A stretch of 64,000 nt of DNA, from NCBI GenBank assembly GCA_964187785.1, contig OZ076409.1:72046001-72110000 (forward strand), written 5' to 3'. This stretch comes from Amphiscolops sp. MND2022. Taxonomy: Eukaryota. Positions 1-64,000 of this stretch are shown in pieces (the stretch's first letter is position 1; every line of letters begins with the position of its first letter). The position numbers and the translations under genes were made by a program. The notes below the pieces were generated by a model, which was not told where the DNA came from, searched no databases, and saw only the letters and a list, made by a program, of their open reading frames with translations.

Positions 1-407
1 TGGACACTATATGATGTAATGGAGGTCGTGAGGAGAGCATTCGGAAATAACCGTTATGTTGACCCCAAAGTCCCCCTGGTACCGTTAACGACCGGAAATG
101 GCCAAATTTTGTGTCTATTGGGTACAAATGTTTGGTATTTTATGGATAAAAGTACCTGGAAGGTGTTTTAAAGGCCTCCAGAAGTGAACATAGTCATGAA
201 ACCTTGTGGGGGGTAACGGTATATAGCATCGGAAGTCCAAACCGTTGGTCACAGAATAGGTTTTTTGGTTTCAATATGTCTTTAGGCATAGTTTTGTGGG
301 TTGAATCGTCATAATATCAACTAATACGGACTTTTTTCGGAAATAAAATTTTTTCACATTAGTTTCAGGGACCTCCAATGCTTCAGTCAAAATAACCGTT
401 ACATTTT

Positions 408-451
408 GATAGCCTTTCAAGTTGACCTGGTGTCAACTTGGAAGGGCTATC
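408..451 (+). other. Internal bulged hairpin H1 (GATAGCC...CAAGTTG...CAACTTG...GGCTATC); representative of A, AL and BS copies
   Basis: 19-bp stem with one G-T pair, a single bulged base on the 3' arm and a 5-nt loop; conserved between otherwise dissimilar families. Confidence 0.8.
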
Positions 452-792
452 CTTCTAAAATCGTTAATCAACAGTGTTTTTGGGTAGGTATATGTTGCAT
501 TAGTACCAATTAGAGCTTCATCAACAGTTTGCCAACGGCAAAAACGATGTCGTGATAATTCCGTTATAAAAATATTAGTTAACAAATTGTTTTCAAAGTT
601 GATTTTTTCCATTAAAAATGTGTCCTAATGCCACCAAATTGAATAAAATAATAAATGGTATTGACTAAAACTAAATAACAATGAAAAAGAAGATCAACAT
701 TTTTATTAGGTCTCATTATGGAAGCAGAAACCTCACGTTTTAACTTAATTAACGTCAACGCCACATACTTTACATCAACGCCCACCGTCTGT

Positions 793-812
793 GGGCATGC
801 CGAGGCATGCCC
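793..812. promoter_or_regulatory. Conserved 20-bp palindrome GGGCATGCCGAGGCATGCCC (p53-family response-element-like); representative of 24 copies
   Basis: Present once per unit about 45-60 bp before CTAG; matches RRRCWWGYYY x2 with no spacer at 19 of 20 positions. Confidence 0.55.
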
Positions 813-869
813 TTCGACGACGTATACCAAACAACCTCCATATCTACACCCACCCGCGGTAGCAGCTAG

Positions 870-2861
870 GTGCGGGGGGGAAACCCCATCCCTTATCTTG
901 GAGGATTCGGGTAGGGTCCTGAATCCGAGTTCAGTGCCGCCAGCTCTCAGTAGAAATCTGGGCATTTTTTTGCGATCTCGTGATCTAACCATAGGATTTT
1001 AAAGTTGGAGCGGCCCCCACCAGATTTTCCAAAGTTATTCGCCCCCCACCGGGTTCCAGCGTGATTGAAATATTTTGACGGGGTACACGGGCGACCGTTA
1101 GGGGTCATTTTGGGGGTAAAATTTATAAAAGTTCGCATAACTTTTTTCCTGTTGGTTTAAAACTTTAGGACCCTGCTAAAAGTTTCTTGACCATGTTGCA
1201 GGGGCCCCGGAGGTCCAAACCAAATTTTTCTATCTTGAAGCTATCTCCAAGTACCCCCCCGCCCAAACCGTTATTTTTCCGGAAACGCCGGTTTTTGACC
1301 CGGAAGGAGTTGTCTGAGCGCGGGGTCGTTAGGTGATGTTTTGGGGACGGCTTTGAGACGAAGCGGGGGATATATAGTTTGCCGACCCCAGTTCACCCCC
1401 CGCACGGGAAATGACCGTTATATGAGCGGGAAAAATGCCCCCCTCCACGTTTTACCGCTATTTCCGGTGTGAAGGAGTGGGAGTAGCGCGTCGGGTGTTA
1501 TATAACAAAAGTAGGTTTAGACAAGGACCTATCGGAAACATGTAGTTTGGGACCCCCTGGTCCAACCTGTTAGCGGGAAATGGGGCTTCCGCCTCCTTTT
1601 TTTACTGCTAAAACCGTAAAATGGGCATTGAGGGGTAAATATCTCGTGAACGCGTGGAGCAATCGTGTCCATCACTACTACAAGGTTTCATACCCATGAT
1701 ATGGTGCCTTCAGGGGGGCAAACAGATTTCCGCTATCTATCACCGTTACCGACTTGGCCCCCCAGCCTAACCGCTATGTGACCGGAAATGTCACTTTTTG
1801 AGCCCAAAGGGTCGGTCCCAGCCGGGGAACGTTAGGTAACTTATTGTAGTACTCAATGAGACGAGTTGGGGCATATAGTTTCAGTCACCCCCCGTTACCC
1901 CTTGGGACCGGAAATGACCGTTATGTGGGTAAAATTGCCATTTTTGTCCTATTTGGAGGGCATTTAGATGCGGAAGGAGTGGTAATAGGTGCTTGGACAC
2001 TATATGATGTAAAAGAGGACGTGATGCGAGCATTCGAAATTAACCGTTATGTTGACCCCTAAGTCCCCCTGGTACCGTAAATGACCGGAAATGGTCTAAT
2101 TTTGTGTTTATTGGGTACAAATGTTTGGTATTTTATGAATTAAAGTACATGGAAGGTGTTTCAAAGGCCTCCAGAAGTGAACATCGTCATGAAACCTTGT
2201 GGGGGGTAACGGTATATAACACCGGAAGTCCAAACCGTTGGTCACAGAATAGGTTTTTTGGTTTCAAAATGTCTTTAGGCGTAGTTTTATGGGTTGAATC
2301 GTCATAAAATCAACTATTACGAACATTTTTCGGAAAAAAATTTTTTTCACATTAGTTTCAGAGACCTCCAATGCTTCAGTCAACATAACCGTTACATTTT
2401 GATAGCCTTTCAAGTTGGCCTGGCGTCAACTTGGAAGGGCTATCCTTCTAAAATCGTTAATCAAGAGTGTTTTTGGGTAGGTATATGTTGCATTAGTACC
2501 AATTAGAGCTTCATCAACAGTTTGCCAACGGCAAAAACGATGTCGTGATAATTCCGTTAAAAGAATATTAATTAACAAATTGTTTCCAAAGTTGATTTTT
2601 TCCATTCGAAGTGTGTCCTAATGCCACCAAATTGAATAAAATAATAAATGGTATTGACTAAAACTAAATAACATTGAAAAAGAAGCTCAACATTTTTAAT
2701 AGGTCTCATTATGGAAGCTGAAACCTCACGTTTTAACTTAATTAACGTCAACGCCACATACTTTACATCAACGCCCACCGTCTGTGGGCATGCCGAGGCA
2801 TGCCCTTCGACGACGTATACCAATTACATATATATCTACACCCACCCGCGGTAGCAGCTAG
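870..2861 (+). mobile_element. Unit 2, family A, 1992 bp non-coding module
   Basis: Bounded by GCTAGGTG junctions; left hairpin 903-926, H1 2401-2444, palindrome 2786-2805. Confidence 0.75.
903..926 (+). other. Left-end hairpin with TAGGGT loop; representative
   Basis: GGATTCGGG-TAGGGT-CCTGAATCC; equivalent hairpins with different stems follow each junction. Confidence 0.8.
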
Positions 2862-3679
2862 GTGGGCGGGGGTAATTCCCCAACTAAAAAATCGGCCGGC
2901 GGGTAGGGTCCTGCCGGCCGTCCAAAATCAAAAATATACTAGTAGAAAACGGCCGGTCAAACGAGCTATTTTTTTATTTAACCGTTAGAATTTGGGTTTA
3001 GATTGCATGCGGCCATGAAATGGCCATACGAATCGAAGTTCCTGCTGACGTTTTGCGATTGAAACACTTTATAAAAAGTTATGGCCAATTTGTCAGTCAC
3101 CTAGAAGGGCAAAATGAGGAAAATTTTAACAAAGTCGCTGATAACTCAAAATGTGTTATTTTTTGGACTTTGACTGTGAAACAAGCTTGGAACCTTCATT
3201 TCGTGGCTGTGGCATTGCACTGAACGCAAAAGATGTAAAGTTTTTACATTTTTTGAAAATTTGACATTTTTGAAATTTTTTTCACTACTATCAGTACCAT
3301 ATATGTCAAAAACACCTCAGAAAAAAATTTTTATTTGCTTTAACTTGGAAACCTTGGTATCCATGGTTTCTGTCGGAACCTACTCGCAACCAAACAACCA
3401 ACAGTTTGCATCCAATGTGAAAATAAAAAATTTTTCTGGGTCATAAGCGTTTCACAAGGATTTCTCAACTTAGTATTAATTTACAAAATGGTCATTTTGA
3501 ACACAATATTTTCATCGAGGCTTGTCGGCTATAGCCTTAATGTTCTAGAACGGTCCCACTGGCAACGTAGGAACCATTTATAGTAATAGAAAGTTTAAAA
3601 AATATATTTTCACCCTGTCTTCAGTCATTTTTCAGTCATTCGGAACTTAACTTAGAAAAATTTCGACCAAAATACCCAA

Positions 3680-5000
3680 TTTTTGACAGATCGAAAATTC
3701 AAATTCAACTTTTTAAGCAAAATTATTAACTCTGACGTAACCAGTGGGGCTCATGATACTCAAAAACACGATTGGGACTGGTACCAATGGCTCCAATATC
3801 ATATGAGCCGCGATAAGACGTTATTTTGAGCAATACGTCTCAATTGAGGGAAACATCTCGCAAGCCTGGGATCACAGTTAAAAGTGATTTCGTCAAAAAT
3901 TTACTCTTTTTCGTCAATCACTATGTACACAGAGTGCTTAGGGTGAGTTTCAGCACTATTATGCGGTTTTTGAAGGAATCGGTCTGCTCAAGGGGTGGTA
4001 TGAGACATTTTTTTTGCATGTAGTACTATATTTCTCAAAACTTTTAGCCCATTATCTCGAAAAGCTCACTTCGCAAATTACTTTCAGTTACTCTATTCGA
4101 AGCTTAGAATATATATGAACACTGTGGTTGATCAGAAACTCTTGACTATTTTGTTTTTGGAAAAAAACTGCCTTGCATGTGTTACATTAGTGGCAGGAAA
4201 AATACCAGTAGCTCCAAAAATCACAATTTTGGACGGACAGACCTGCAATGATGCAAAGCAAAAACGTTTCAACAACTTCTGGCGCCACTTTTTTTACCCA
4301 AGAGGTTCGAAATTACTATTAACAATGCTGACATTCGCTATAAATAAGATCGAGGTCAATTTACTAACACTTAGGTTATACATTTATATCTGAGAAACCA
4401 TTCTTTGTCAGGTCGCAATTTTAAATTTAGTTTGGGAAGCAATACTTTTCACTCTGAAGCAAACCGTTGGGCCCAAATTACTCAAAAACTACAAAAAGAC
4501 TGTCACCATATGCCCTAATAGCATATGAGATTCGACCGTATGTTTTTAACACAAAAACTCTCATCCGAAGTAAACATGTTGAAGGCCTTGAATCACCGTG
4601 AGAAATGATTTCATCAAAAAATATTCCTTTTTCGTCAATCTTTATTTACACAGAACACGTTGTGTCATTTTCAGCCGTGAAATGAGCTTCTACCGTAATA
4701 TGGGTTGCTCAAGGTGTTGTATAAGACAAAAACTTCCTCTTTTCTACTATCTTCTTCAAATATTTCAACCCTTTGTCACAAGAAGTTAATATTCAAAATC
4801 TCTTTGAAATGTTTCTTTAGGTTGGGGTGAAGTGTTAGAACAATAATTATGATCGAAGAATGATAGTATTGGTGTTTGGACCATGTCCGGATGAACAAAT
4901 TGCAAAATCATGAAAAATTTCTTACCATTTTTGGTCATTTTGTCAGTACTAAAAATGTTAGCTGAAAAAGAATTTTTTGATGGCACCATTGGATTCCTCT
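3680..5000 (+). repeat. Old diverged ~720-bp direct duplication inside BL units (bounds approximate)
   Basis: CTCTGACGTAACCAGTGGGGCTCATGATACTCAAAAAC near 3730 parallels CTCTGAAGCAAACCGTTGGGCCCAAATTACTCAAAAAC near 4452; TGCTCAAGG and other blocks also recur. Confidence 0.7.
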
Positions 5001-5095
5001 CAAAAAGTTAGCTATATGAACTGTGTAATAACCCCGTATCTTTTCAATTTAAATAATTTTAAAAAGCAAACTTTTTTGACTAAAATCCTAAAAAT

Positions 5096-6430
5096 CATAC
5101 CATTTCCTAAAAAATTTCAAATGCCCCCCATTTGACGTATAAGAATAGCACAGAAAACTATCACATACCGATCGACTCTACTTCCATTGTAGATTACCAG
5201 AATTTTGTTTAGAACAATTTTTGACGGATGCAAAAAAAAATTTAAACCCTCCAAAAAAGGGCCAAAATTACACGAAAAAATTGACCTTAAAATTTTAAAA
5301 TGTCGAAAAATCATCAAAACCACAGCTTCTTGGGGTTCTATCAACTCCACGTGGTCCACAGAGTATGTTAAAACAAGTTTTACCCGTATTTGTGCAATAT
5401 GTGAAAAAGCCGACTTTTTTGGGAATGAGAAACATACCATTTCCTAAAAAATTTCAAACGCACCCCATTTGACGTATAAGAATAGCACAGAAAACTATCA
5501 CATACCGATCGACTCTACTTCCATTGTAGGTTACCAGAATCTTGTTTAGAACAATTGTTGACGGATGCAAAAAAAAATTAAACCCTCCAAAAATGGGCCA
5601 AAATTACACGAAAAAATTGACCTTAAATTTTTAAAATGTCAAAAAATCATCAAAACCACAGCTTCTTGGGGTTCTATCAACTCCACGTGGTCCACAGAGT
5701 TTGCTAAAACAGGTTTTACCTGTTTCTGAGCTATATGTGAAAAAACCGACATTTTGGGGAAGAAAAACATACCATTTCCTAAAAAATTTCAAATGCACGC
5801 CATTTGCCGTATGAGAATAGCACAGAAAACTATCACATACCGATCAACTCTACTTCTATTGTAGATTATCAGATTTTTGTTTAGAACAAATTTTTATGGA
5901 TATAAAAAATTTTTAAACCCTCCAAAAATGAGCCAAAATAACACGAAAAAATGGACCCTAAATTTTTAAAATGTCAAAAAATTATCCAAACCACAGCTTC
6001 TTGGGGTTCTATCAGCTCCACGTGGTCCACAGAGTATGCTAAAACAGGTTTTGCCCGTTTTTGAGCAGTATATGAAAAAGCCGACATTTTTGGGGAAGAA
6101 AAACATACCATTTCCTAAATAATTTCAAATGCAGGCAATTTGCCGTATGAGAGTAGCACAGAAAACTATCACACACCGATCAACTCTACTTCTTTTGTAG
6201 ATTATCAGAATTATGTTTAGAGTAAAGTTTTATGGATATGAAAAATTTTTATACCCTCCAAAAATGGGCCAAAATGACACAAAAAAATTGACCTCAAATT
6301 TTTAAAATGTCAAAAAATTATCCAAACCACAGCGTCTTGGCGTTCTATCAACTCCAAATGACCTTCAGAGTATACCAAACCAGGTATTGCCAATCTTTTG
6401 AGCAATATTTAAAAACACCGACTATTTGGC
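5096..6430 (+). repeat. About 4 tandem copies of a ~336-bp repeat in unit 3 (end approximate)
   Basis: CATACCATTTCCTAA at 5096, 5433, 5768, 6104. Confidence 0.9.
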
Positions 6431-6657
6431 AAGAACACCATAATATGTTCCATATAAGAAGTGAATCATTCCACATATATACCCGGTCTAATATTTCCAA
6501 ATTAGCGATAACATTTATACATGATGGTTTTTGAAAGTGAGCTTCATAAGAGGTTGAGATGTAATAATACGTAAATGGACCCTAAGTTTCATTGAAATCT
6601 CAATGGAATACGTCCAATCAACTTCAATCCTAACTATTATATAACAAAAAACACTTG

Positions 6658-6698
6658 AGTACATTCCATCTCCCCATCGGGGGAGATGAGAATGTACT
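6658..6698 (+). other. Internal bulged hairpin H2 (AGTACATTCCATCTCCCC-ATCG-GGGGAGATGAGAATGTACT); representative of BL and D copies
   Basis: 9 bp + bulged A on the 3' arm + 9 bp + 4-nt loop; nearly invariant in diverged BL subtypes and in unit 15. Confidence 0.8.
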
Positions 6699-7623
6699 TT
6701 TCAAAAGCCAAAAACTTCGAATTTTAAATCTTTTGTAACATTGTATGTAACTGTTGAAACGATGAACGAATAAAAATGCTTCTAGTACCTTCATCAATTT
6801 TTGCTTCAGCTCCTATTTCTGCAGAACAAAACCAAAAGACACACTTACAGCAGTTAAGTTCGATTGTATAACTCAGTGAATAAAGGTATGACTGAGGAAG
6901 TTCACAAGTTGTTTCAAAAGTTTCCGGCCTTCCAAAATCATGAAACGTCCACACAACCAAGATAGCAAGTGAAAGAATGCTGAATGCACCTTATTAGATG
7001 AGATAAATAATGTGTGGAACTTGCCATTATCTCAAGATGACGTTGATTTATGATCTTTTAAGGATAGTTCGATATGTGACCACAATAGTGGAAAACCTAT
7101 TACTATTTGAAGAACACCGTGGAAAGCGTTCAGAAAGGACAGTATATTTGTTTCGAGCATGCATGCGTGTGTTCCTTTGGTGACGTTAGCTTAGTGTACA
7201 TGACGGAGGTATTCGAGAGAATATGATAGAGTTTACTCACAAGTCTTTGTTTTGTTAAACTTTCTATGCCGTTGAGTACATTCGTAAGGTACATCCATCC
7301 CCTTCTCTGGGAATGTACGTTTGCCAAATGACTGTCATCCAAAATTCGTAATCCGGACGAGTTTAACTACATAAACATGTGATGAGCGTTTTCAATTCAC
7401 AACCGAATAACATTTTTTTCTCGAAAATGATGATGGTTTTGATTTTGATGTCTTCTACTTTTATCATCATGCAAACGACCTTACCATGTCTCTCTTCTGT
7501 CGTCATTTGTACAACGCCACATACCGTTCCGACGCCCACCGTCTGTGGGCATGCCGAGGCATGCCCTTCGACGACGTATGCCAAATGAGCCATACCCGCA
7601 CTCTGGAGTGCGGTAGCGGCTAG

Positions 7624-9617
7624 GTGGGCGGTAGGTTTCCCGTAGTCAAAAAAAATTGCAGGCCGGGGTAGGGGCCCTGGCCGAGGCAAAATACCATAGA
7701 AAAGGTACCAAATTATGTGAGTTTAGAAAATTGAGCCATACAAATTCTCTGAAAATTGCTGTGTGTACCCTATCGCCCAATCTAAGAACTTTTTCCTGCT
7801 GACGTTTTGCTCTCCAAATGTTACTAATATGACTTTTTGAAAAATTTATCTCTGGTTTTTCATCAAAAATAGTGATTTTGGCAATTTTTGTGAAATATCT
7901 CTGATTGCATTAATTTTTGGACGTTGACTGTGAAACAAGGTCGGAACCATCATTTCGTGACCATGGCAATGCACTAAACACAAAAGATGTAGAGTTTTTA
8001 AATTTTTTGAAAATTTGACATTTTTGAATTTTTTTCACTACTATCAGTACCATATATGTCAAAATAACCTCAGAAAATTTTTTTTTATTTTATTTAATTT
8101 AGAATCCTTGCTATCCATGGTTTCTGTTAGTATCTACTCGCTGCCAGAGACTCAACAGTTAGCATCGAATCTGAAATTAAAAATTTTTTCGAGGTCATAG
8201 GTGTTTCACAAGGATTTCACAACATAGTCTTGTTTTACAAATAGGTCATTTACAACATCATATTTTCATCGAGGCATGTCGGATATAGTCTTATTGCTCA
8301 CGAACGGTCCTACTGGCAACGTAATAACCATTTATAGAAATATAAAGTTTTTAAAAAATCTTTTCACCCGTTCTTCAGACATTTTTCAGACATTCGGAAC
8401 TTAACTTAGAAAAATTTCGTCTCTAAAACCCATTTTTCGTCAGGTCGAAATTTGAAATTCAGCTTTTGAAGCACAAATATGCACTCTGACGTAACCAGTA
8501 GGGCCAATGATACTCAACAACACCATTGAGACTGGTATCAGTCGCTCCAAAAACATATGAGCCGTGATAAGACGTTTTTTTCAACAATACTGTTCAATTG
8601 ATGTAAACATTGCGGAAGCCTTGGATTACAGTGAAAGTTGATTTGAACAAAAATTTACTCTTTTTTGTCAATCACTATGTAGACAGAATGCGTAGGGTAA
8701 GTTTCAGCACTAATATGAAGATTTTGAAGGAATCGGGTTGCTCAAGGCGTGGTATGAGACACTTTTTTCTCATATACTAGTGTTTTTCAAAACCTTTTCG
8801 TTAAATATCTCGAAAAGCAAACATTAAAAAATACTTTCTGATATCTAATTTAATTCCTAGAATATAAATGAATCATGTGGTTGATCAGAAACTCTCTACT
8901 TTAATGTTTCCAGAAAAAAATCCCTTCCCATGTTTTATATCTGTAGCAGTAAAAAAAGTAGACGCTAAAAAATACGCTATTTTGCTAAGATTGAATTGCA
9001 ATTGTTTAGCTTTAAAACTCTTTTAATACTTCTAACGCCACCTTAAGGACTCAAGATGATTGAAAATGTCAATCACAATGCTGACATGTAGTCTTTCTAC
9101 GATCCTGGCTGGACAGATTTTGATTATTTTTCAAGTACCTGTTAACTGAATCTCGTGATAGCCTTCTAAGTTGACCTTCTGCGTCAACTTGAGAAGGCTA
9201 TCACTAAAATAAACTAAATTCTGATTTGTTTGTTTGTTCCTAACGTCTTTTGGTACGATCGTCTTACGGTTAGTTGGTTAAACCAGGTCGCTTATACTTC
9301 CACAATTTTCGACCACCGTCCGTGTATTCGGTTCACACGACTTTACATTTTCAGTCGTTTGTTTTCGATAACTTTCACAATGTACTGCCATTAGCGCAAA
9401 ATTCATACTAGTACTTGGTTGGTTGAAATACTTAAACAACTGTTTCCATAGTTATTCGCGGTGATGGTACAATCCGCGCGCCTACATACATACGGCGTCT
9501 TGTCACTACAACGCCACATAGGGAAACAACGCCCATAGTCCGTAGGCATGCCGAGGCATGCCTTTCGACGACGCGCGCCAAATCTATGCGCGCCCGCACT
9601 TGTGCGGTAGCTGCTAG
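7624..9617 (+). mobile_element. Unit 4, family BS (divergent), 1994 bp
   Basis: Bounded by GCTAGGTG; body homologous to the left part of BL; H1 at 9155-9204. Confidence 0.72.
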
Positions 9618-12415
9618 GTGGCGGGGGGCTGTCCCCAATAGAATATAGTGAGGTAGGGTAGGGTTCCCTACCGAACATTCAGTACTGAAAGACTCTTGTA
9701 GTATGAAAATTTTTCGATGTTTTGAGACCGATTTCGGATTCCACCCGTCAGAAGTTTATGATTTTTTGGCCCCCACCCAGATTTTGGGCACTGATCGCCC
9801 CCCACCAGGTTCCATACCCGTGGTTTCGTTGTGACGGGTACACGAGCGACCGTTAGGGGTCAATCAGGGGGTAAAATTTATAAAAGTGTGAATAACTTTT
9901 CCCCCCGTCGTTTTAGCAGGTCCGGTCACTAGTAAAGGTTTGTTGGGCATCATGCAGTGGGTACGGGGGGCCAAACAAAAATTTTCTATCATGCACCGTT
10001 ACGGACTTGGCCCCCCGCCCAAACCGCTATTTTACCGGAAATTGCACTTTTTGAACGGGAAGGAGTCGTCTGAGCGCGGAGTCGTTTGGTAATGTTTTGT
10101 AGAGCATCTGAAGACGTGGTGGGGGACATGTAGTTTGCCGACCCCAGTTTACCCCTCGGACGGGAAATGACCGTTATGTTAGTTTTAAAATTGCCCCCCG
10201 TCAACTTTAACCGCTATTTCTGGTGTGAAGGAGTCGGAACAGCGTGTCGGGTGCTATATATCAAAAGTAGCTTTAAACAAGGACCTATCAGAAACATGTG
10301 GTTTGGGACCCTTTGAACGGACCCGTTAGCCGGAAATAGGGTGACCGCCTCCTTTTTTTGGTGTTAAAACCGTAAAACGGGCATTAAAGTGAAATTATCT
10401 CGTGAACGCGTGGAGCAATCGTGTCCATCACTCCTACAAGGTTTCATACCCATGACATGGTGTCTTCAGGGGGGCAAACAGATCAGCGCTATCTATCACC
10501 GTTACGGACTTTGCCCCCCAGCCTAACCGCTATATTACCGGAAACTGCCCTTTTTGACCGGGAAGGAGTCGTCTGAGAGTGGAGTCGTTAAGTAATGTTT
10601 TGTAGAGCATCTAGAGACGTGTTGGGGGACATGTAGTTTGCCGACCCCTGTTTACCCCTCGGACGGGAAATGACCGTTATGTTAGTTTTAAAATTGCCCC
10701 CCGTCAACTTTAACCGCTATTTCTGGTGTGAAGGAGTCGGAATAGCGTGTCGGGTGCTACATATCAAAAGTAGCTTTAAACAAGGACCTATCAGAAACAT
10801 GTGGTTTGGGACCCTTGGAACGGACCCGTTAGCCGGAAATAGGGTGACCGCCCCCTTTTTCTGCGGTTAAAATTGTAAAACGGGCATTGAAGTGGAATTA
10901 TCTTGGAAACGCGTGGAGCTATAGTGTCCTTCACTACTACAAGGTTTCATACTCAAGATACGGTGCCTTCAGGGGGGAAAACAGATTACCGCTATATATC
11001 ACCGTTACGGACTTGGCCCCCCAGCCTAACCGCTATGTTACCGGAAATGTCATTTTTTGAGCCAAAAGGGTTAGTCCCAGCGTGGGAACGTCAGGTAACT
11101 TTATGTAGAACTCAATGAGACGAGTTGGAGGATATGGTTTCAGTCACCCCCCGTTGACCCGTTAGACCGGAAACGACCGTTATGTAGTGAAAAATGTAAT
11201 TTTTATACTTTTTGAAGGCCATTTAGGGCAGGAAGTATCGGTAATATGTCTTTGGACAGTATACAATGAAAGTTTTGGTGTGAAACAAGCAATCTGAAAT
11301 ATCCGTTATTATGATTCGGAAGTCACACTAACAGCGAAAATGACCGTTATGTAGTGAAAATTTTTTTCACATTTTTTTTGCTTTCGATAGGTCCTTCAAG
11401 CCAAGAAGTAGCTGTATTAGGTCTTTGGCCACTTTATGATGATTGTGGTGTTGTGAGATGACCGTACGAACTTGACCTTTATAATGCCCCTGAGTTGCTG
11501 CGGCACGAGAAATTTCAGAAAGTTTGTCTTTTCTGTGTTTTGTTGGAATAAACATTTAATTTCATTAAACCAATGTGCATTCAGGGTGTTTAGAAAGCTT
11601 CAAGAAAAGAATTTAATAGGAAACATGGCGGTGAGAAATAACAAATTGCCACGTAAATCCAACCCCCGTTGGGGAATAAATGTAATAAATTGTTTTGGAA
11701 GTGCCAATCGACGTGTATTTGCGGATCATAGCCACGGTATTGTCTATTCGTGTTTCTTTTTGAAGACTTTGAACATTTTCACTTTATCAGCTTGAGGTTT
11801 TAACTCTATATGCTTAATAACCGTTACAATATGATAGCCCTCAAGTTGACCTTGTGTCAACTTGAAAGGGCTATCCTTTCACAACTGCGCAGCAACAGTG
11901 TGATTGAGTGATTTAGTTATTATCCAAGGCCAATTTGAACTTCAACAAGATTTTAACCACAATATTTAAAACTATTCATATGATTCTTTCAAAAGGGTAA
12001 ATATTTAACTAATATTTGACAAAAAAACTCCAACCTTTAATTTGTGGACCGAATAGTAGGAAAACCATGTTTCTTAACGTTGTTGGATGAAATTCAAAAT
12101 GATGCTTTTAAAAGAATAACAATTCTTGACACTATATATTTTTTCTATTTTCCAATAAACTATTTTTCCAAAAGTCTATTTTTCCAATAAACATTGTTGA
12201 TTGATGCCCATTCATAGTGACTGGAAAGTTTTACCAACTGTGGTGTTTTTTTTTAATCAGAGGTGAAACCGCTCCCTACCGTCGCATAATGTAATTCAAG
12301 CCGACGCCCACATGCCAACATCAACGCCCACCGTCCGTAGGCATGCCGAGGCATGCCTTTCGACAACGTATGCCAAATCACGCCCCTGCGAGGTCACTAA
12401 AGCGGTAGCGGCTAG
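9618..12415 (+). mobile_element. Unit 5, family AL, 2798 bp
   Basis: Bounded by GCTAGGTG; A-related body with 503-bp internal repeats; H1 at 11833-11875; sister of unit 18. Confidence 0.72.
9995..11350 (+). repeat. 503-bp internal repeat, about 2.7 copies, in unit 5 (end approximate)
   Basis: ACCGTTACGGACTT at 9995, 10498, 11001. Confidence 0.85.
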
Positions 12416-20320: not shown

Positions 20321-22309
20321 GTGGGCGGGGGTAATTCCCCAACAAAAAAATCGGCCGGCGGGTCGGGTCCTGCCGGCCGTCCAAAATCAAAATCCTCCTA
20401 GTAGAAAACGGCATGTCAAACGAGCTATTTTTTTATTTAACCATACGAATCTCACCATTTTTTGCATGCGGCCCTGAAATGGCCATACGAGACGAAGTTC
20501 CTGCTGACGTTTTGCAATGTAAATGTTTTATAAAAAGTTATGGCCGATTTGTCATTCACCTAGAAGGGTAAAATGAGGAAAATTTTAACAAAGTCGCTGA
20601 TAACTCAAAATGTGTTAATTTTTGGACTTTGACTGTGAAACAAGATTGGAACCTTCATTTCGTGGCTGGGGCATTGGACTGAACACAAAAGATGTAAAGT
20701 TTTTACGTTTTTTGAAAATTCGACATTTTTGAAATTTTTTTCACTACTATCAGTACCCCATATGTCAAAAACACCTCAGAAAAAAATTTTTATTTGCTTT
20801 AAATTGGAAACCTTGGTATCCATGGTTTCTGTCGGAACCTACTCGCAGCCAAACACCCAACAGTTTGCATCCAATGTGAAAATAAAAAATTTTTCGGGGT
20901 CATAAGCGTTTCACAAGGATTTCTCAACTTAGTATTAATTTACAAAATGGTCATTTTGAACATAATATTTTCATCGAGGCTTGTCGGCTATAGCCTTAAT
21001 GTTCTAGAACGGTCCCACTGGCAACGTAGCAACCATTTATAGTAATATAAAAGGTTAAAAAATTTTTTTCACCCGGTCTTCAGTCATTTTTCAGACATTC
21101 GGAACATAACTTAGAAAATTTTTGACCCAAATACCCATTTTTTGTCAGGTCGAAAATTAAAATTCAGCTATTAAAGCAAAATTATTTACTCTGACGTAAC
21201 CAGTGGGGCCCATGATACTCAAAAACACCATTGGCACTGGTACCAATGGCTCCATTAACATATGAGTCGCGATAAGACGTTATTTTGAGCAATACGTCTC
21301 AATTGAGGTAAAGATCTCGCAAGCCAGCGATCACTGTGAAATGTGATTTCATCAAAAATTTACTCATTTTTGTCAATAACTATGTGCACAGAGTGTGTAG
21401 GGTGCGTTTCAGCACTATAATGAGGTTTTTGAAGGCATCGGGTTGCTCAAGGGGTGGTATGAGACATTTTTTTCCTATATACTACTGTGTTTTCCAAAAC
21501 TTTTAGCCCATTATCAGGAAAAAATAATTTGACAAATTACTTTCAACTACTTTATTCAAAGGTTACAATATAGATGAACACTGTGGTTGATCAGAAACTT
21601 TCATCTCTTTCGTTTTCCGAAATAATTCCCTTCGAATGTGTTACATTTGTAGCCGGAAAAAAAACCGAAACTAAAAAATACGCGATTTTGCTGAGATAGA
21701 ACCGGGATAATTGTGTCTAAATACTCTTTAAATACTTCTAACGCGACCTTACGGACCCAAAAGGATTAAAAATGCCACTCACAATGCTGACATGTGCTCT
21801 TTCGACGATCCTGGCTGGACAAGTTTTGCAAATATTTCAAGTACCTGTTAACTGAATTTTGTGATAGCCTTTTAAGTTGGCCTTGTGTCAACTTGGGAAG
21901 GCTATCACATCAAAAAACTTTCAACAAAAAAACTTTTTGTTTATTGGATATTGCTGTCGATACCTTTTTTAGTGATTCTATACTACCGTTAGTATATTCC
22001 ATCAGGTCACCAGACGATTGTATTCAGTATTTGATAAAAATATATGAACTCGAAGTCTCTTTCATATGTTTTTTGTTCAAAAAAATTATCAAAAAAATTT
22101 ATATTATAAACAATTGAGTCTTTAACTTTTTTATTCCCCAATTTTCCAGTGTTATTAGGCTCATCAACTTCCTACTGCCACATCCAGACATTAGTACAAC
22201 GCCACAAAGTGTTGCGACGTCCACCGTCTGTGGGCATGCCGAGGCATGCCCTTCGACGACGTATGCCAAAAATAGCGCCCTCCGCGGTCACTACCGCGGT
22301 AGCAGCTAG
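20321..22309 (+). mobile_element. Unit 10, family BS, 1989 bp
   Basis: Bounded by GCTAGGTG; H1 at about 21860-21909. Confidence 0.75.
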
Positions 22310-33003: not shown

Positions 33004-34279
33004 GTGGTCGTTAGCATGGGATTTTCTTTATGAGCGTAGTCCACTTTTTTTAGGCCGGGGTAGGGTCCCGGGCCGTTACCAATTTCTTACGGAGGAAAAA
33101 TGTGAAAATCTGCGAGTTTAAAAAATTGGCCCGTACGATTTGGCTGAAAATTGGCATACAGCATCGTCTTGGGAAACAAATGACTTTGTCCTAGTGTCAT
33201 TTTGCCCAGAAAATTCAAAAAGTTGGTCAAATTGAAAATTTTTTGTCCGTCCAAGGCAAAAATTTGACTTTTTCGCTTTTTTTGGCCAATTTTCTCAGAA
33301 TTGGTTGATTTTGGTGCAGTGAGTCATAAGAGGTTATAAGGTCTGCAAGTAGCCATCAATCGGCTTGCAAAATCAGATTTTGTCAAAAGTGTTTAGTTTT
33401 TTCAAAAATTCACACTTTTTTTTTATTTCAATGTTTTTTGATACACTTTATTGAATTTTTTCTAAGTTTCACTAAATTTTTTTAAAAATGTTTTAAAACA
33501 CTTTTTTTGCACGTTTTTGATGTTTTTCGCTCTCCCATACAGGTTTTCGCATACGGGGAAACTGAATCTGGCAACGAAATAACTTTATTCTGCAGTTCAA
33601 CTTTCGCCATTTTTAATTGTTGAAAAATCACTTATTTTCAACCTAACGAGTGAAAATATCAGATTTTAAAAACATAAAGTTGAGTTTAAGGAGACTTACA
33701 GGTGGAAACAAATGCTCAGAAACAAATAGATTTCTTGTATTAGCCAAAGAAAGCCTTTAAAATTCTTTTTACTTTCTTTAAATCAAAATTCAACTATTTT
33801 TAGGAAATTTGGCAGTGAAAAAAATTTATAATTTTTAAATAAAAAACTTGCTTTGTTGGTCATTTGCGTTTGTCATTATTATCTGTGTAATTCACCAACA
33901 CGTTTCAAGTATTTTGACCCAATTTGAAAATTTTTGATACTGCATAATCTATCCGAGAGAACGAAACAGTTGTGTACATTCCATCTCCCTCCTGGGGGAG
34001 ATGAGAATGTACTTGCCAAAGTCCAGGTACTACAGACCATATTTGTTTTTATGCGACGCCGTCTATACTAGTGCACATGAATACAAATTGTTTGTCTGAA
34101 TTTTACTTCTGACTTGACGTATGCTGTACGTTTGGTACTGACAATACCCATCATATACATAACAAGCGTCAACGCCACATACCCTTACCAACGCCCATAG
34201 TCCGTAGGCATGCCGAGGCATGCCTTTCGACGACGCGCGCCAAACACAAGCGCGCCCGCACTTTTGCGGTAGCGGCTAG
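33004..34279 (+). mobile_element. Unit 15, family D (single copy in window), 1276 bp
   Basis: Bounded by GCTAGGTG; unique AT-rich body but left hairpin 33053-33074, H2 33974-34012 and the standard right end are present. Confidence 0.7.
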
Positions 34280-57292: not shown

Positions 57293-59285
57293 GTGGGCGG
57301 GGGTAATTCCCCAACAAAAAAATCGGCCGGCGGGTCGGGTCCTGCCGGCCGTCCAAAATCAAAATCCTCCTAGTAGAAAACGGCATGTCAAACGAGCTAT
57401 TTTTTTATTTAACCATACGAATTTCACCATTTTTTGCATGCGGCCCTGAAATGGCCATACGAGACGAAGTTCCTGCTGACGTTTTGCGATGTAAATGTTT
57501 TATAAAAAGTTATGGCCGATTTGTCATTCACCTAGAAGGGTAAAATGAGGAAAATTTTAACAAAGTCGCTGATAACTCAAAATGTGTTAATTTTTGGACT
57601 TTGACTGTGAAACAAGCTTGGAACATTCATTTCGTGGCTGTGGCATTGCATTGAACACAAAAGATGTAAGGTTTTTACATTTTTTGAAAATTCGACATTT
57701 TTGAAAATTTTTTCACTACTATCAGTACCCCATATGTCAAAAACACCTCAGAAAAAAATTTTTATTTGCTTTAAATTGAAAACCTTGGTAGCCATGGTTT
57801 CTGTCGGAACATACTCGCTGCCAAACACCCAACAGTTTGCATCCAGTGTGAATTTAAAAATTTTTTCGAGGTCTTAGGTGTTTCACAAGGATTTCTCAAC
57901 TTAGTATCAAATTACAAATTGGTCATTTTGAACACATTATTTTCATCGAAGCGTGTCAGATACCGCCCTAATGCTCACGAACGGGCCTACTGGCAACGTT
58001 GGAACAATTTATCGTAATAGAAAGTTTTAAAAAAAATTTTTCGCCCGGTCTTCAGTCATTTTTCACACATTCGGAACTTAACTTAGAAAAATTTCAACCG
58101 AAAAACCCATTTTTTGTCAGGTCGAAAATTCAAAGTCAGCTTTTTAAGCAAAATTATCAACTCTGACGTAACCAGTGGGGCCCATGATACTCAATACAAC
58201 GATTGGGGTTGGTACCAATGGCTCCAATAACATATGAGTCGCGATAAGACGTTATTTTGAGCAATATGTCTCAATTGAGTTAAAGATCTCGCCAACCAGT
58301 GATCACTGTGAAATGTAAATTCATTAAAAATTTACTCATTTTCGTCAATCACCATGTGCACAGAGTGCGTAGGGTGAGTTCCAGCACTATAATGAGGTTT
58401 TTGAAGGCATCGGGTTGCTCAAGGGGTGGTATGAGACATTTTTTTCCTATATACTACTGTATTTTCCAAAAGTTTTAGCCCATTATCTGGAAAAACTAAC
58501 TTGACAAAATACTTTCAACAACTTTACTCAAAGGTTACAATGTAGATGAACCCAGTGGTTGATCAAAAATTTTCATCTCTTTCGGTTTCCGAAATAATTC
58601 CCTTCGAATGTGTTACATTTGTAGCAGGAAAAAAAACCGAAACTAAAAAATTCGCGATTTTGCTGAGATAGAATCGCAATGGTTGCCCCTAAAATCTCTT
58701 TAAATACTTCTAACGCGACCTTATGGACCCAAAATGATTGAAAATGCCATTCACAATGCTGACATGTGCTCTTTCGACGATCCTGGCTAGACAAGTTTTG
58801 CATATTTTTCAAGTACCTGTTAACTGAATTTTGTGATAGCCTTTTAAGTTGGCCTTGTGTCAACTTGGGAAGGCTATCACATCAAAAAACTTTCATCAAA
58901 AATACTTTTTGTTTATACAATAATGTAGTCGATAGTTATTTTCGTGATTTTACACTACCGTTAGTACCTTCCGCCAGGTCAGCTGACGATTGCATGCTGT
59001 CTTTGATAAAAACGTATGAACACCAAGAAAATTTTGTTGTATTTTTGTTGAAGAAAAGTATTAATAAATAATAAAAATATAATTCTAACCTTAAACAACT
59101 ATAAATTTGCTTAACCGTTATTAGTCCTACCACCTATCATCAGCCTATGCCATGGCCCGGTGATTAGTAGTACAACGCCACATAAAGTAGCGACGCCCAC
59201 AGTCTGTGGGCATGCCGAGGCATGCCCTTCGACGACGTATGGCAATTTTAGCGTAGCCCGCGGTCACTACCGCGGTAGCAGCTAG
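57293..59285 (+). mobile_element. Unit 23, family BS, 1993 bp
   Basis: Bounded by GCTAGGTG; homologous to unit 10. Confidence 0.75.
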
Positions 59286-62200
59286 GTGGGCGGGGGTAAT
59301 TCCCCAACTAAAAAATCGGCCGTCGGGTAGGGTCCTGCCGGCCGTCCAAAATCAAAAATATACTAGTAGAAAACGGCCGGTCAAACGAGCTATTTTTTTA
59401 TTTAACCGTTAGAATTTGGGTTTAGATTGCATGCGGCCATGAAATGGCCATACGAATCGAAGTTCCTGCTGACGTTTTGCGATTGAAACACTTTATAAAA
59501 AGTTATGGCCAATTTGTCAGTCACCTAGAAGGGCAAAATGAGGAAAATTTTAACAAAGTCGCTGATAACTCAAAATGTGTTATTTTTTGGACTTTGACTG
59601 TGAAACAAGCTTGGAACCTTCATTTCGTGGCTGTGGCATTGCACTGAACGCAAAAGATGTAAAGTTTTTACATTTTTTGAAAATTTGACATTTTTGAAAT
59701 TTTTTTCACTACTATCAGTACCATATATGTCAAAAACACCTCAGAAAAAAAATTTTATTTGCTTTAACTTGGAAACCTTGGTATCCATGGTTTCTGTCGG
59801 AACCTACTCGCAACCAAACAACCAACAGTTTGCATCCAATGTGAAAATAAAAAATTTTTCTGGGTCATAAGCGTTTCACAAGGATTTCTCAACTTAGTAT
59901 TAATTTACAAAATGGTCATTTTGAACACAATATTTTCATCGAGGCTTGTCGGCTATAGCCTTAATGTTCTAGAACGGTCCCACTGGCAACGTAGGAACAA
60001 TTTATAGTAATAGAAAGTTTAAAAAATATATTATCACCCTGTCTTCAGCCATTTTTCTGTCATTCGGAACTTAACTTAGAAAAATTTCGACCAAAATACC
60101 CATTTTTTGACAGATCGAAAATTCAAATTCAACTTTTTAAGCAAAATTATTAACTCTGACGTAACCAGTGGGGCTCATGATACTCAAAAACACGATTGGG
60201 ACTGGTACCAATGGCTCCAATATCATATGAGCCGCGATAAGACGTTATTTTGAGCAATACGTCTCAATTGAGGGAAACATCTCGCAAGCCTGGGATCACA
60301 GTTAAAAGTGATTTCGTCAAAAATTTACTCTTTTTCGTCAATCACTATGTACACAGAGTGCGTAGGGTGAGTTTCAGCACTATAATGCGGTTTTTGAAGG
60401 AATCGGTCTGCTCAAGGGGTGGTATGAGACATTTTTTTTGCATGTAGTACTTTATTTCTCAAAACTTTTAGCCCATTATCTCGAAAAGCTCACTTCGCAA
60501 ATTACTTTCAGTTACTCTATTCGAAGCTTAGAATATATATGAACACTGTGGTTGATCAGAAACTCTTGACTATTTTGTTTTTGGAAAAAAACTGCCTTGC
60601 ATGTGTTACATTAGTGGCAGGAAAAATACCAGTAGCTCCAAAAATCACAATTTTGGACGGACAGACCTGCAATGATGCAAAGCAAAAACGTTTCAACAAC
60701 TTCTGGCGCCACTTTTTTTACCCAAGAGGTTCGAAATTACTATTAACAATGCTGACATTCGCTATAAATAAGATCGAGGTCAATTTACTAACACTTAGGT
60801 TATACATTTATATCTGAGAAACCATTCTTTGTCAGGTCGCAATTTTAAATTTAGTTTGGGAAGCAATACTTTTCACTCTGAAGCAAACCGTTGGGCCCAA
60901 ATTACTCAAAAACTACAAAAAGACTGTCACCATATGCCCTAATAGCATATGAGATTCGACCGTTCGTTTTTAACACAAAAACTCTCATCCGAAGTAAACA
61001 TGTTGAAAGCCTTGAATCACCGTGAGAAATGATTTCATCAAAATATATTCCTTTTTCGTCAATCTTTATCTACACAGAACACGTTGTGTCATTTTCAGCC
61101 GTGAAATGAGCTTCTACCGTAATATGGGTTGCTCAAGGTGTTGTATAAGACAAAAACTTCCTCTTTTCTACTATCTTCTTCAAATATTTCAACCCTTTGT
61201 CACAAGAAGTTAAAATTCAAAATCTCTTTGAAATGTTTCTTTAGGTTGGGGTGAAGTGTTAGAACAATAATTATGATCGAAGAATGATAGTATTGGTGTT
61301 TGGACCATGTCCGGATGAACAAATTGCAAAATCATGAAAAATTTCTTACCATTTTTGGTCATTTTGTCAGTACTAAAAATGTTAGCTGAAAAAGAATTTT
61401 TTTGATGGCACCATTGGATTCCTCTCAAAAAGTTAGCTATATGAACTGTGTAATAACCCCGTATCTTTTCAATTTAAATAATTTTAAAAAGCAAACTTTT
61501 TTGACTAAAATCCTAAAAATCATACCATTTCCTAAAAAATTTCAAATGCCCCCCATTTGACGTATAAGAATAGCACAGAAAACTATCACATACTGATCGA
61601 CTCTACTTCCATTGTAGATTACCAGAATTTTGTTTAGAACAATTTTTGACGGATGCAAAAAAAATTTAAACCCTCCAAAAAAGGGCCAAAATTACACGAA
61701 AAAATTGACCTTAAAATTTTAAAATGTCGAAAAATCATCAAAACCACAGCTTCTTGGGGTTCTATCAACTCCACGTGGTCCACAGAGTATGTTAAAACAA
61801 GTTTTACCCGTATTTGAGCAATATGTGAAAAAGCCGACTTTTTTGGGAATGAAAAACATACCATTTCCTAAAAAATTTCAAACGCACCCCATTTGACGTA
61901 TAAGAATAGCACAGAAAACTATCACATACCGATCGACTCTACTTCCATTGTAGGTTACCAGAATCTTGTTTAGAACAATTGTTGACGGATGCAAAAAAAA
62001 ATTAAACCCTCCAAAAATGGGCCAAAATTACACGAAAAAATTGACCTTAAATTTTTAAAATGTCAAAAAATCATCAAAACCACAGCTTCTTGGGGTTCTA
62101 TCAACTCCACGTGGTCCACAGAGTATGCTAAAACAGGTTTTACCTGTTTCTGAGCTATATGTGAAAAAACCGACATTTTGGGGAAGAAAAACATACCATT

Positions 62201-64000
62201 TCCTAAAAAATTTCAAATGCACGCCATTTGCCGTATGAGAATAGCACAGAAAACTATCACATACCGATCAACTCTACTTCTATTGTAGATTATCAGATTT
62301 TTGTTTAGAACAAATTTTTATGGATATAAAAAATTTTTAAACCCTCCAAAAATGAGCCAAAATAACACGAAAAAATGGACCCTAAATTTTTAAAATGTCA
62401 AAAAATTATCCAAACCACAGCTTCTTGGGGTTCTATCAGCTCCACGTGGTCCACAGAGTATGCTAAAACAGGTTTTGCCCGTTTTTGAGCAGTATATGAA
62501 AAAGCCGACATTTTTGGGGAAGAAAAACATACCATTTCCTAAATAATTTCAAATGCAGGCAATTTGCCGTATGAGAGTAGCACAGAAAACTATCACACAC
62601 CGATCAACTCTACTTCTTTTGTAGATTATCAGAATTATGTTTAGAGTAAAGTTTTATGGATATGAAAAATTTTTATACCCTCCAAAAATGGGCCAAAATG
62701 ACACGAAAAAATTGACCTCAAATTTTTAAAATGTCAAAAAATTATCCAAACCACAGCGTCTTGGCGTTCTATCAACTCCAAATGACCTTCAGAGTATACC
62801 AAACCAGGTATTGCCAATCTTTTGAGCAATATTTAAAAACACCGACTATTTGGCAAGAACCCCATAATATGTTCCATAAAAGAAGTGAATCATTCCACAT
62901 ATATACCCGGTCTAATATTTCCAAATTAGCGATAACATTTATACATGATGGTTTTTGAAAGTGAGCTTCATAAGAGGTTGAGATGTAATAATACGTAAAT
63001 GGACCCTAAGTTTCATTGAAATCTCAATGGAATACGTCCAATCAACTTCAATCCTAACTATTATATAACAAAAAACACTTGAGTACATTCCATCTCCCCA
63101 TCGGGGGAGATGAGAATGTACTTTTCAAAAGCCAAAAACTTCGAATTTTAAATCTTTTGTAACATTGTATGTAACTGTTGAAACGATGAACGAATAAAAA
63201 TGCTTCTAGTACCTTCATCAATTTTTGCTTCAGCTCCTATTTCTGCAGAACAAAACCAAAAGACACACTTACAGCAGTTAAGTTCGATTGTATAACTCAG
63301 TGAATAAAGGTATGACTGAGGAAGTTCACAAGTTGTTTCAAAAGTTTCCGGCCTTCCAAAATCATGAAACGTCCACACAACCAAGATAGCAAGTGAAAGA
63401 ATGCTGAATGCACCTTATTAGATGAGATAAATAATGTGTGGAACTTGCCATTATCTCAAGATGACGTTGATTTATGATCTTTTAAGGATAGTTCGATATG
63501 TGACCACAATAGTGGAAAACTTATTACTATTTGAAGAACACCGTGGAAAGCGTTCAGAAAGGACAGTATATTTGTTTCGAGCATGCATGCGTGTGTTCCT
63601 TTGGTGACGTTAGCTTAGTGTACATGACGGAGGTATTCGAGAGATTATGATAGAGTTTACTCACAAGTCTTTGTTTTTTTAAACTTTCTATGCCGTTGAG
63701 TACATTCGTAAGGTACATCCATCCCCTTCTCTGGGAATGTACGTTTGCCAAATGACTGTCATCCAAAATTCGTAATCCGGACGAGTTTAACTACATAAAC
63801 ATGTGATGAGCGTTTTCAATTCACAACCGAATAACATTTTTTTTCTCGAAAATGATGATGGTTTTGATTTTGATGTCTTCTACTTTTATCATCATGCAAA
63901 CGACCTTACCATGTCTCTCTTCTGTCGTGATTTGTACAACGCCACATAGCGTTCCGACGCCCACCGTCTGTGGGCATGCCGAGGCATGCCCTTCGACGAC
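59286..64000 (+). mobile_element. Unit 24, family BL (subtype 1), truncated by the window end
   Basis: Near-identical to unit 3; H2 63082-63122; palindrome 63972-63991; junction expected about 50 bp past the window. Confidence 0.75.
61521..62850 (+). repeat. ~336-bp tandem repeat block in unit 24 (end approximate)
   Basis: Same repeat family as 5096-6430. Confidence 0.85.

Follow-up and report, generated by a model that had tools for sequence, protein, structure and literature searches.

Background

How Helitrons choose their targets and join themselves to them is poorly understood, because the known Helitrons use only a dinucleotide. The stretch of DNA considered here (the "window": 64 kb, C1:72,046,001-72,110,000 in the 1.07-Gb genome of Amphiscolops sp. 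MND2022) is part of an array of transposon units set end to end and all facing one way. The units are non-autonomous rolling-circle (Helitron-like) elements of the form 5'-GTG...CTRG-3'. With a probability of roughly 0.8, arrays of this kind grow unit by unit, through a transposase that prefers the resident end-to-end junction as its target.

Two classes of Helitron-like element, HLE1 and HLE2, are defined by their ends, target and clade (PMC11417382). The new elements resemble HLE1 (e.g., Helraiser, PDB 7LCC) in their Y2-HUH Rep-PIF1 fusion, Rep fold, lack of target duplication and many non-autonomous partners, and in a 3' end that corresponds to CTRR after a hairpin: CTAG or CTGG in 168 of 168 detected junctions (as the detection rule dictates), with the hairpin 45-75 nucleotides (nt) upstream in the window's families. 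They differ from HLE1 in starting with GTG instead of TC, in inserting at G^A, G^G, G^T or C^T (consensus CTNG^DT, where D is A, G or T) instead of A^T, in stacking mixed families at junctions and in occupying a separate branch of the tree. With HLE2 (Helitron2/Helentron) they share RepHel, a long open reading frame (ORF) and slightly higher profile scores than with HLE1; a possible counterpart of the short asymmetric terminal inverted repeats of HLE2 was seen in B-type units, where 7 nt of the 5' end match a subterminal site ahead of the 3' hairpin. Unlike HLE2, they have no DUF6570 (0/78), no AP endonuclease match in 19 proteins scanned, no T^T (or T^C) insertion, and again a separate branch. 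In 5' end, target and clade the new elements fall outside the definitions of both classes. HELIANO lists one HLE2 family that bears GIY-YIG, HelenSM92, with terminal inverted repeats and TT sites (PMC11417382).

The nearest precedent, compared here by description, is the third Helitron clade of Paramecium (PMC13085455). It too lies outside HLE1 and HLE2, its orientation bias is absolute, and its CCAA right end, inserted in C4A2 repeats, makes the target, as we read it, resemble the element's own last four bases. It differs in targeting telomeric repeats, in having repeats between copies and no sister-junction target in what is described, and in its ORFs of 3,052-3,592 amino acids (aa), for which the main text mentions no GIY; the Hel01 ORF ends, by eye, ~85 codons past helicase motif VI (PMC13085455). 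In place of CCAA ends and telomeric insertion, the elements described here have CTRG ends and non-telomeric flanks.

IS91 targets CTTG, GTTC, GTCC and CTCG, and itself ends in CTCG (PMC13181058): its target tetranucleotide resembles the terminal cleavage site, and CTTG, CTCG and GTCC are also targets here. Y2-HUH, the lack of target duplication and subterminal palindromes are further likenesses, to which IS91 adds circles and read-through (PMC13181058). It is prokaryotic, has no helicase (PMC10288648), and in the sources available no mixed-family arrays of it are reported. In the elements described here, PIF1 is fused to the Rep.

Polarised head-to-tail arrays in which autonomous and non-autonomous families mix are formed by HeT-A, TART and TAHRE at Drosophila telomeres. 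Those are chromosome-end retrotransposons, often truncated, whereas here full-length DNA elements meet at internal, sequence-defined junctions. Replitrons are eukaryotic HUH transposons with oriented, target-specific insertion, but their Rep is of the Y1 type without helicase and they have terminal direct repeats (PMC10288648). Of the Helitron arrays described in the sources available, some repeat a single family in tandem or are internal minisatellites (PMC12001565, PMC11934779, PMC5148889), and others are interspersed with centromeric repeats (PMC13404089). A literature search found no self-junction-targeting Helitrons, no RepHel-GIY-YIG clade and no mixed junction-precise array; Repbase, Dfam, most subscription papers and the HELIANO supplements lay outside its scope, and members may already be catalogued there.

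The array and its junctions

The window's array of head-to-tail units is real. The word GCTAGGTG occurs 23 times on the plus strand and not at all on the minus strand; cutting 3' of CTAG yields 22 complete units of 1,276-4,764 bp and 2 partial ones, in size classes of 1.3, 2.0, 2.8 and 4.8 kb:

1..64000, plus strand: portion of a polarised head-to-tail array of non-autonomous Helitron-like elements; the array runs on past both sides
2857..2864, plus strand: example junction GCTAG|GTG, cut between 2861 and 2862, where one element's 3' end meets the next one's 5' end (boundary set by empty sites; 23 in the window)
870..2861, plus strand: complete A-type unit, GTG...CTAG, 1,992 bp
1-869 (partial), 12416-14409, 14410-16380, 16381-18345, 18346-20320 and 31033-33003, plus strand: other A units
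2862..7623, plus strand: BL1 unit, 4,762 bp
41036-45799 and 59286-64000 (partial), plus strand: BL1 copies, 99-100% identical, with different neighbours
24293-29054 and 45800-50559, plus strand: BL2 units
50560-55308, plus strand: BL3 unit
7624..9617, plus strand: BS-like unit, a separate family, ~80% identical to other B units over 1.3 kb
9618..12415, plus strand: AL unit, 2,798 bp, with ~750 bp duplicated internally; second copy at 38245-41035
20321..22309, 22310-24292, 29055-31032, 34280-36260, 36261-38244, 55309-57292 and 57293-59285, plus strand: BS units
33004..34279, plus strand: D unit, 1,276 bp, of the 1.3-kb size class that is dominant in other parts of the array

A reading of the window from its sequence alone (the sequence-only reading) had reported these 23 junctions and the order and classes of the units, and both are borne out, with 7624-9617 now placed in a more distant BS-like family. 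The same goes for its observations that BL1 has different left neighbours (A at 2862, AL at 41036, BS at 59286) and that one right end, CGCCCGCGCTCCCCGGCTAG, is followed by BL, BS, AL and BS (at 24292, 36260, 38244 and 57292). Its junction motif holds in the window and is too narrow as a general rule: 8 tracts on two chromosomes yield 176 units in 43 families (at 75% identity) with 168 junctions of the form CTRG|GTG (GCTAG 84, TCTAG 55, CCTAG 13, NCTGG 16), a core that is part of the rule by which junctions were detected; 3 further junctions depart from it. Its finding of no inversions likewise holds for the window; the wider array has an inverted unit at C1:72.446 Mb (C1:72.445-72.448 Mb, L089), fused to an oppositely oriented truncated head.

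No similarity between window units was found on the minus strand, nor in the window any ORF longer than 159 aa or other coding capacity; a search of Rfam at gathering thresholds gave no match, and hence no known ribozyme or RNA family. The different classes are alike mainly in their end motifs, in a short patch inside the unit and in ~60-110 bp of subterminal sequence towards the right end.

The first unit of the array stands at C1:70,454,838, and the array is still running at 76.485 Mb (the sampled stretches span ~70.45-76.5 Mb). A 19-mer from the right end has 4,148 exact matches in the genome; among the 100 matches listed, most form single-strand clusters. The flanks of elements are sister elements, a tRNA-like repeat, a retroelement-like ORF and other DNA.

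Ends, hairpins and the target word

Empty paralogous sites are available for three insertions: CTAG|AT (3 copies), CTTG|AT (2 copies) and CTTG|GT (11 of the 12 loci fetched). They read straight through, and the element is therefore GTG...CTRG, inserted immediately 3' of CTNG and before (G/A/T)T without target-site duplication. Where first units of arrays enter non-array DNA, the left flank ends in CTNG in 8 of 9 cases (CTAG 3, CTTG 4, CTCG 1) and in GTCC in the other, a count that leaves out L073 (an ambiguous old copy) and L005 and L086 (whose upstream DNA resembles another unit). Many of the non-array ends examined belong to solo insertions, and small 2-unit and multi-unit arrays are also present. 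Where the target is CTTG or CTCG, the solo insertion retains its own CTAG end. One solo unit sits within a tRNA-like repeat with A- and B-box-like motifs (L074, L162, L164), of which empty copies exist elsewhere.

Genome-wide, the right end GCGGTAGCNGCTAG has 2,086 copies, followed by GTG in 2,003 (96%), GT and another base in 32, G and another base in 2, A in 37, T in 12 and C in none. In the G-starting cases other than GTG the second base is T in 32 of 34; among 30 of the 49 followed by A or T it is T in 28 (AT 21, TT 7, other 2), a set in which three pairs share flanks and two members may be chance matches. On the transposed strand of non-autonomous families CTNG-DT is depleted (57 vs 119).

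Junctions between resident elements are framed by two subterminal hairpins, exemplified by:

2786..2815, plus strand: right subterminal hairpin, GGGCATGCC-GA-GGCATGCCC plus TTCGACGACG, ~45-75 nt before CTAG
2894..2919, plus strand: left subterminal hairpin, usually 39-45 nt in from the 5' end; its loop reads KAGGG(T/C)

In 63 distinct stems of the left hairpin, the three inner pairs are kept in 62-63, and the outer stem varies between families and is still paired; the exact motif is absent from 6 of 98 distinct heads. A 20-mer of the right hairpin has 19 exact copies in the window and is common to several autonomous elements. The left hairpin may be an origin or a transposase-binding site, and the right one is a candidate terminator.

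Autonomous partners

A HUH Rep/helicase, one of the two enzymes at which the sequence-only reading had guessed, does lie between the same ends. The autonomous elements, 12-17 kb long, lie within the same arrays and use the same junctions as the short units; they encode a transposase of 2,200-2,850 aa that joins a Y2-HUH Rep to a PIF1 helicase, usually with a C-terminal GIY-YIG nuclease. A 13.7-kb element in a gap of the C1:24.0 Mb array, with the same junctions and with GTG and CTAG ends, carries a 2,377-aa ORF in which Pfam recognizes Helitron_like_N (E 3.4e-10), PIF1 (E 1.6e-11) and a C-terminal GIY-YIG. The HUH and YxxxY motifs are conserved in the transposases. For the predicted Rep structure (pLDDT, a per-residue confidence score, 75), Helraiser 7LCC is the sole Foldseek match under E 0.001 (E 1.9e-5), and phmmer with the Rep region against PDB sequences gave nothing, 7LCC included, so that this relationship is visible by fold only.

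A 190-aa piece of transposase gave 150 scored matches (of 294 candidates). At least 36 lie at C1:70.56-76.46 Mb, all on the plus strand and ~30-90% identical, and 28 of these are in reading frames open for 2,200 aa or more. One 200-kb stretch has five autonomous-type ORFs among ~100 short units. The link to the window is through the ends: its right-end hairpin is 86-98% identical over 50-86 nt to those of autonomous elements at C1:71.02, C1:73.74 and C2:103.75 Mb, and GCGGTAGCAGCTAG, terminal in window units, also ends an element at C1:70.56 Mb with a 2,207-aa transposase. The latter's family (C1:70.557-70.564 Mb, L118-L119; several frames have the same length) stops just past helicase motif VI.

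A second ORF of 330-440 aa (ORF2) is conserved alongside the transposase. Seven scans of it found no Pfam family (one of six references was one base out of frame); ESM Atlas gave matches scoring under 0.9 to oligonucleotide-binding (OB)-fold families, and a low-confidence model (pLDDT 43) gave weak RPA/OB matches (best E 0.033, Z up to 4.0). That ORF2 specifies an OB-fold binder of single-stranded DNA is, on these models, a lead only.

How the order of units arose

Why do units of different families meet so precisely, and in what order? Near-identical units (at least 97% identity) almost never share neighbours. Of the 52 such pairs for which the units on either side are known, 48 have no neighbour in common and none has both in common, evidence against block duplication. 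No shared block is longer than 2 units, a length reached in 2 cases. When near-identical units adjoin unrelated ones, their tails are identical in 34 of 43 pairs and their heads in 34 of 42, and the ends stay with their own body right up to the junction (tails 36/43, heads 40/42). Addition of self-targeting non-autonomous elements one at a time at the junction, as the sequence-only reading had proposed, is supported by neighbour sharing, by this concordance of ends with bodies, by the empty sites and by the genome-wide counts of what follows an end.

The best of the alternatives is nonetheless improbable. It holds that the transposase reads only CTNG^DT, and that arrays are concatemers and read-through products, shuffled by unequal crossing-over or gene conversion, with solo copies purged. 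Helitron tandem arrays are known (PMC5876387, PMC12001565, PMC5148889), and an excess of same-family neighbours, two recurring 2-unit blocks, some swapped tails and one 78-nt read-through (all taken up below) speak for it. However, concatemers give identical neighbours, and identity of at least 97% is seen in a single adjacent pair of the 168 (1.8 expected); crossing-over keeps neighbours, which 48 of the 52 near-identical pairs have lost altogether; full-length homology is missing from 114 of the 168 adjacent pairs, and the junctions fall into 124 distinct types. The 176 units contain 256 internal plus-strand CTWG^DT sites, and at none of them was a nested insertion found. This hexamer is expected to occur millions of times in the genome (an estimate from base composition), and so frequent a word cannot, alone, explain 96% junction use without extreme selection.

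We think it less probable again that mixed multimers are built off the chromosome, by strand transfer between the circle junctions of different families, and integrate as blocks, even though this would still be junction-specific. Circle junctions would equal array junctions in sequence, Helraiser circles are reusable donors (PMC5876387), and the small arrays of two or several units exist. Such multimers should leave repeated multi-unit blocks, but 60 of 62 shared runs are single units, and the true solo insertions noted above also speak against it.

An integron-like tyrosine or serine recombinase, inserting circular cassettes at the junction, is very improbable. The sequence-only reading had spoken of an integron-like stack and guessed at a tyrosine recombinase: the junctions are indeed precise, polarised and spacer-free with a short common core, and the integron survives as an analogy, but the enzyme encoded by elements with these ends is a HUH Rep-helicase. 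Neither an IntI-type tyrosine recombinase nor any other recombinase Pfam family was found in 4 ORFs of one autonomous element or in 6 second ORFs (unlinked recombinases were not searched for genome-wide), and the CTAG end kept at CTTG and CTCG targets is what single-strand transfer predicts. Nor is it at all probable that misassembly of a repetitive region produced the order, even though one array junction coincides with an N gap, given that units differ by 1-25% within families in a non-repeating order, that 8 tracts on two chromosomes share the architecture, that solo copies have empty-site paralogues and that independent metagenome contigs have the same boundary.

A number of observations nevertheless sit uneasily with one-at-a-time growth at preferred junctions. 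1) The order is non-periodic, as the sequence-only reading had it (class autocorrelation shows no higher-order periodicity), but not fully random: same-family neighbours are in excess (58/168 vs 35 in shuffles), and unrelated neighbours resemble one another in head and tail more than in shuffles (0/300). Both fit a family-specific preference for junctions; local amplification or recombination could also produce them. Heads and tails both correlate between neighbours and are not separable as the targeting cue. 2) Recombination does act, since 7 of the 43 near-identical pairs have swapped tails and one of the autonomous elements appears to be a mosaic. 3) The 96% of right ends followed by GTG also reflects survival and later amplification, not insertion choice alone. 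4) Five left ends chosen for having no preceding G do not follow CTNG. 5) The strand depletion of CTNG-DT is weaker in autonomous elements, and is no outlier among control patterns (rank 41/256). 6) No autonomous element was found with the bodies of window units, only the ends and one 130-bp patch matching, and the 2,207-aa family, whose last 14 nt are those of window tails, is without GIY-YIG. 7) About 0.35 Mb of the ~6-Mb array was read, its continuity being deduced. 8) The chemistry proposed below is borrowed from Helraiser and IS91, and catalysis is deduced.

On the minus strand at C1 ~38.073 Mb (L012), 78 nt of other DNA, with CTTG as their last bases, separate the CTAG end of a unit from the next GTG head. 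By analogy with one-ended transposition of IS91, this segment is a probable 3' read-through that ended at a target-like word. It, the swapped tails, the mosaic element and the inverted unit show secondary processes.

Proposed mechanism

Helraiser is nicked on the plus strand at its left end, and its circles, with precise junctions, act as reusable donors (PMC5876387). On this model, the transposase would nick the top strand after CTRG; one unit would be peeled off and closed as a circle with a CTRG|GTG junction, and the circle joined by strand transfer into a target cut after CTNG. With a target word that is the element's own 3' end, each insertion would leave a new target in the same orientation. 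A resident junction, carrying both subterminal hairpins and identical to the circle junction, would be bound and cut best, and would be strongly preferred to any other site. Arrays would be seeded by rare insertions in ordinary DNA and then grow unit by unit at internal junctions, with dozens of families mixed; each transposase family seems to prefer junctions of its own end type, which would give regional clustering, and two-unit moves, read-through and recombination would occasionally be overlaid. The GIY-YIG nuclease may nick or resolve a branched intermediate, but this is speculation, and some families do without it.

Lineage of the transposase

A search for transposase homologues returned 644 representatives at E <=0.001; GIY-YIG is present in 14 of 19 full-length representatives scanned. 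In profile comparisons, with HLE1 and HLE2 references taken from the same genome and from two homologue searches, Rep medians between the new group and either class are 16-47 bits, against 50-60 bits between HLE1 and HLE2; for the helicase the figures are 50-100 and 113-141 bits. The DUF6570 region that marks HLE2 was found above 15 bits in none of 78 new-group proteins, against 96 of 106 HLE2 references. Trees of 58 and 31 chosen rows, with references from one seed search, resolve three groups at 98-100 by the SH-aLRT branch test, whether made from concatenated domains, from Rep only, from helicase only or under a mixture model: the new group separates from HLE1 at 100, and the sampled HLE2 has its own branch at 98-99. 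These trees are unrooted, similarity to seed sequences decided which proteins entered each group, the program flagged a meeting of long branches, HELIANO subgroups are incompletely sampled, and the HELIANO unclassified clusters and the Paramecium clade lie outside them.

Judged by sequence comparison, the transposases are a deeply divergent Helitron-like lineage, apart from the sampled HLE1 and HLE2: probably a new clade of Helitrons with unusual self-targeting behaviour. An affiliation with HLE2 was considered, an ESM Atlas search with the Rep region having returned HLE2-type clusters at 0.90-0.91; this weak indication was not borne out by the trees or by the DUF6570 test. Three Helitron lineages coexist in the genome: long-ORF HLE1 (L132), DUF6570-bearing HLE2 (L128-L131, L133) and the new group.

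Many relatives occur in metagenomes, where 28 loci were collected. Two of them (L139 and L142) are one distant element, 99.8% identical over 9.5 kb, with two left flanks, ending CTGG and CTAG, and then GT; L151 and L152 have the left hairpin; and six of the 28 have ORF2 homologues. In L151, L152, L157 and L145 ORF2 lies on the strand opposite the transposase. A scan of IMG/VR gave 368 pattern matches, none confirmed as relatives.

Implications

Taken together, we lean towards a still broader proposal: a widespread, undescribed major clade (Rep-PIF1-GIY-YIG with an OB-fold partner) in which an IS91-like target, the element's own 3' end, may have been sharpened to recognition of the full junction. 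It would build expanding safe harbours, that is, megabase one-directional arrays of many families, would act as a scarless, iterable single-strand integrase for 1-17 kb of cargo, and would link IS91 and Helitrons mechanistically. A defined junction target makes target capture, termination and the role of GIY-YIG testable with oligonucleotides, and a duplication-free transposase acting at a self-regenerating site could serve ordered gene stacking. One can think of the arrays as a route to megabase repeat domains besides satellite amplification or nested insertion, in which a guild of transposons would spare genes by stacking on itself. A deep Helitron branch with target words that match those of IS91 bears on the proposed prokaryotic origin (PMC8788227). 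Annotation rules built on TC...CTRR/AT would overlook such elements.

Other arrays and minor features

More large clusters of autonomous copies, in both orientations, lie at C2:102.0-103.9 Mb and C3:2.4-3.8 Mb, and the C2 array reaches the contig end. At C1:23.975-23.980 Mb (L005:5300-9767) a plus-strand and a minus-strand array stand head-on across a 200-N gap. At C4:77.228 Mb (L092) the first 50 nt of a unit head are tandemly duplicated at the junction. Within the window, every BL unit has an internal repeat:

5091..6442, plus strand: 336-bp minisatellite, ~4 copies; also at 26524-27790, 43267-44617, 48029-49295, 52789-54047 and 61516-62859

This minisatellite has weaker similarity to a segment of the BS unit.

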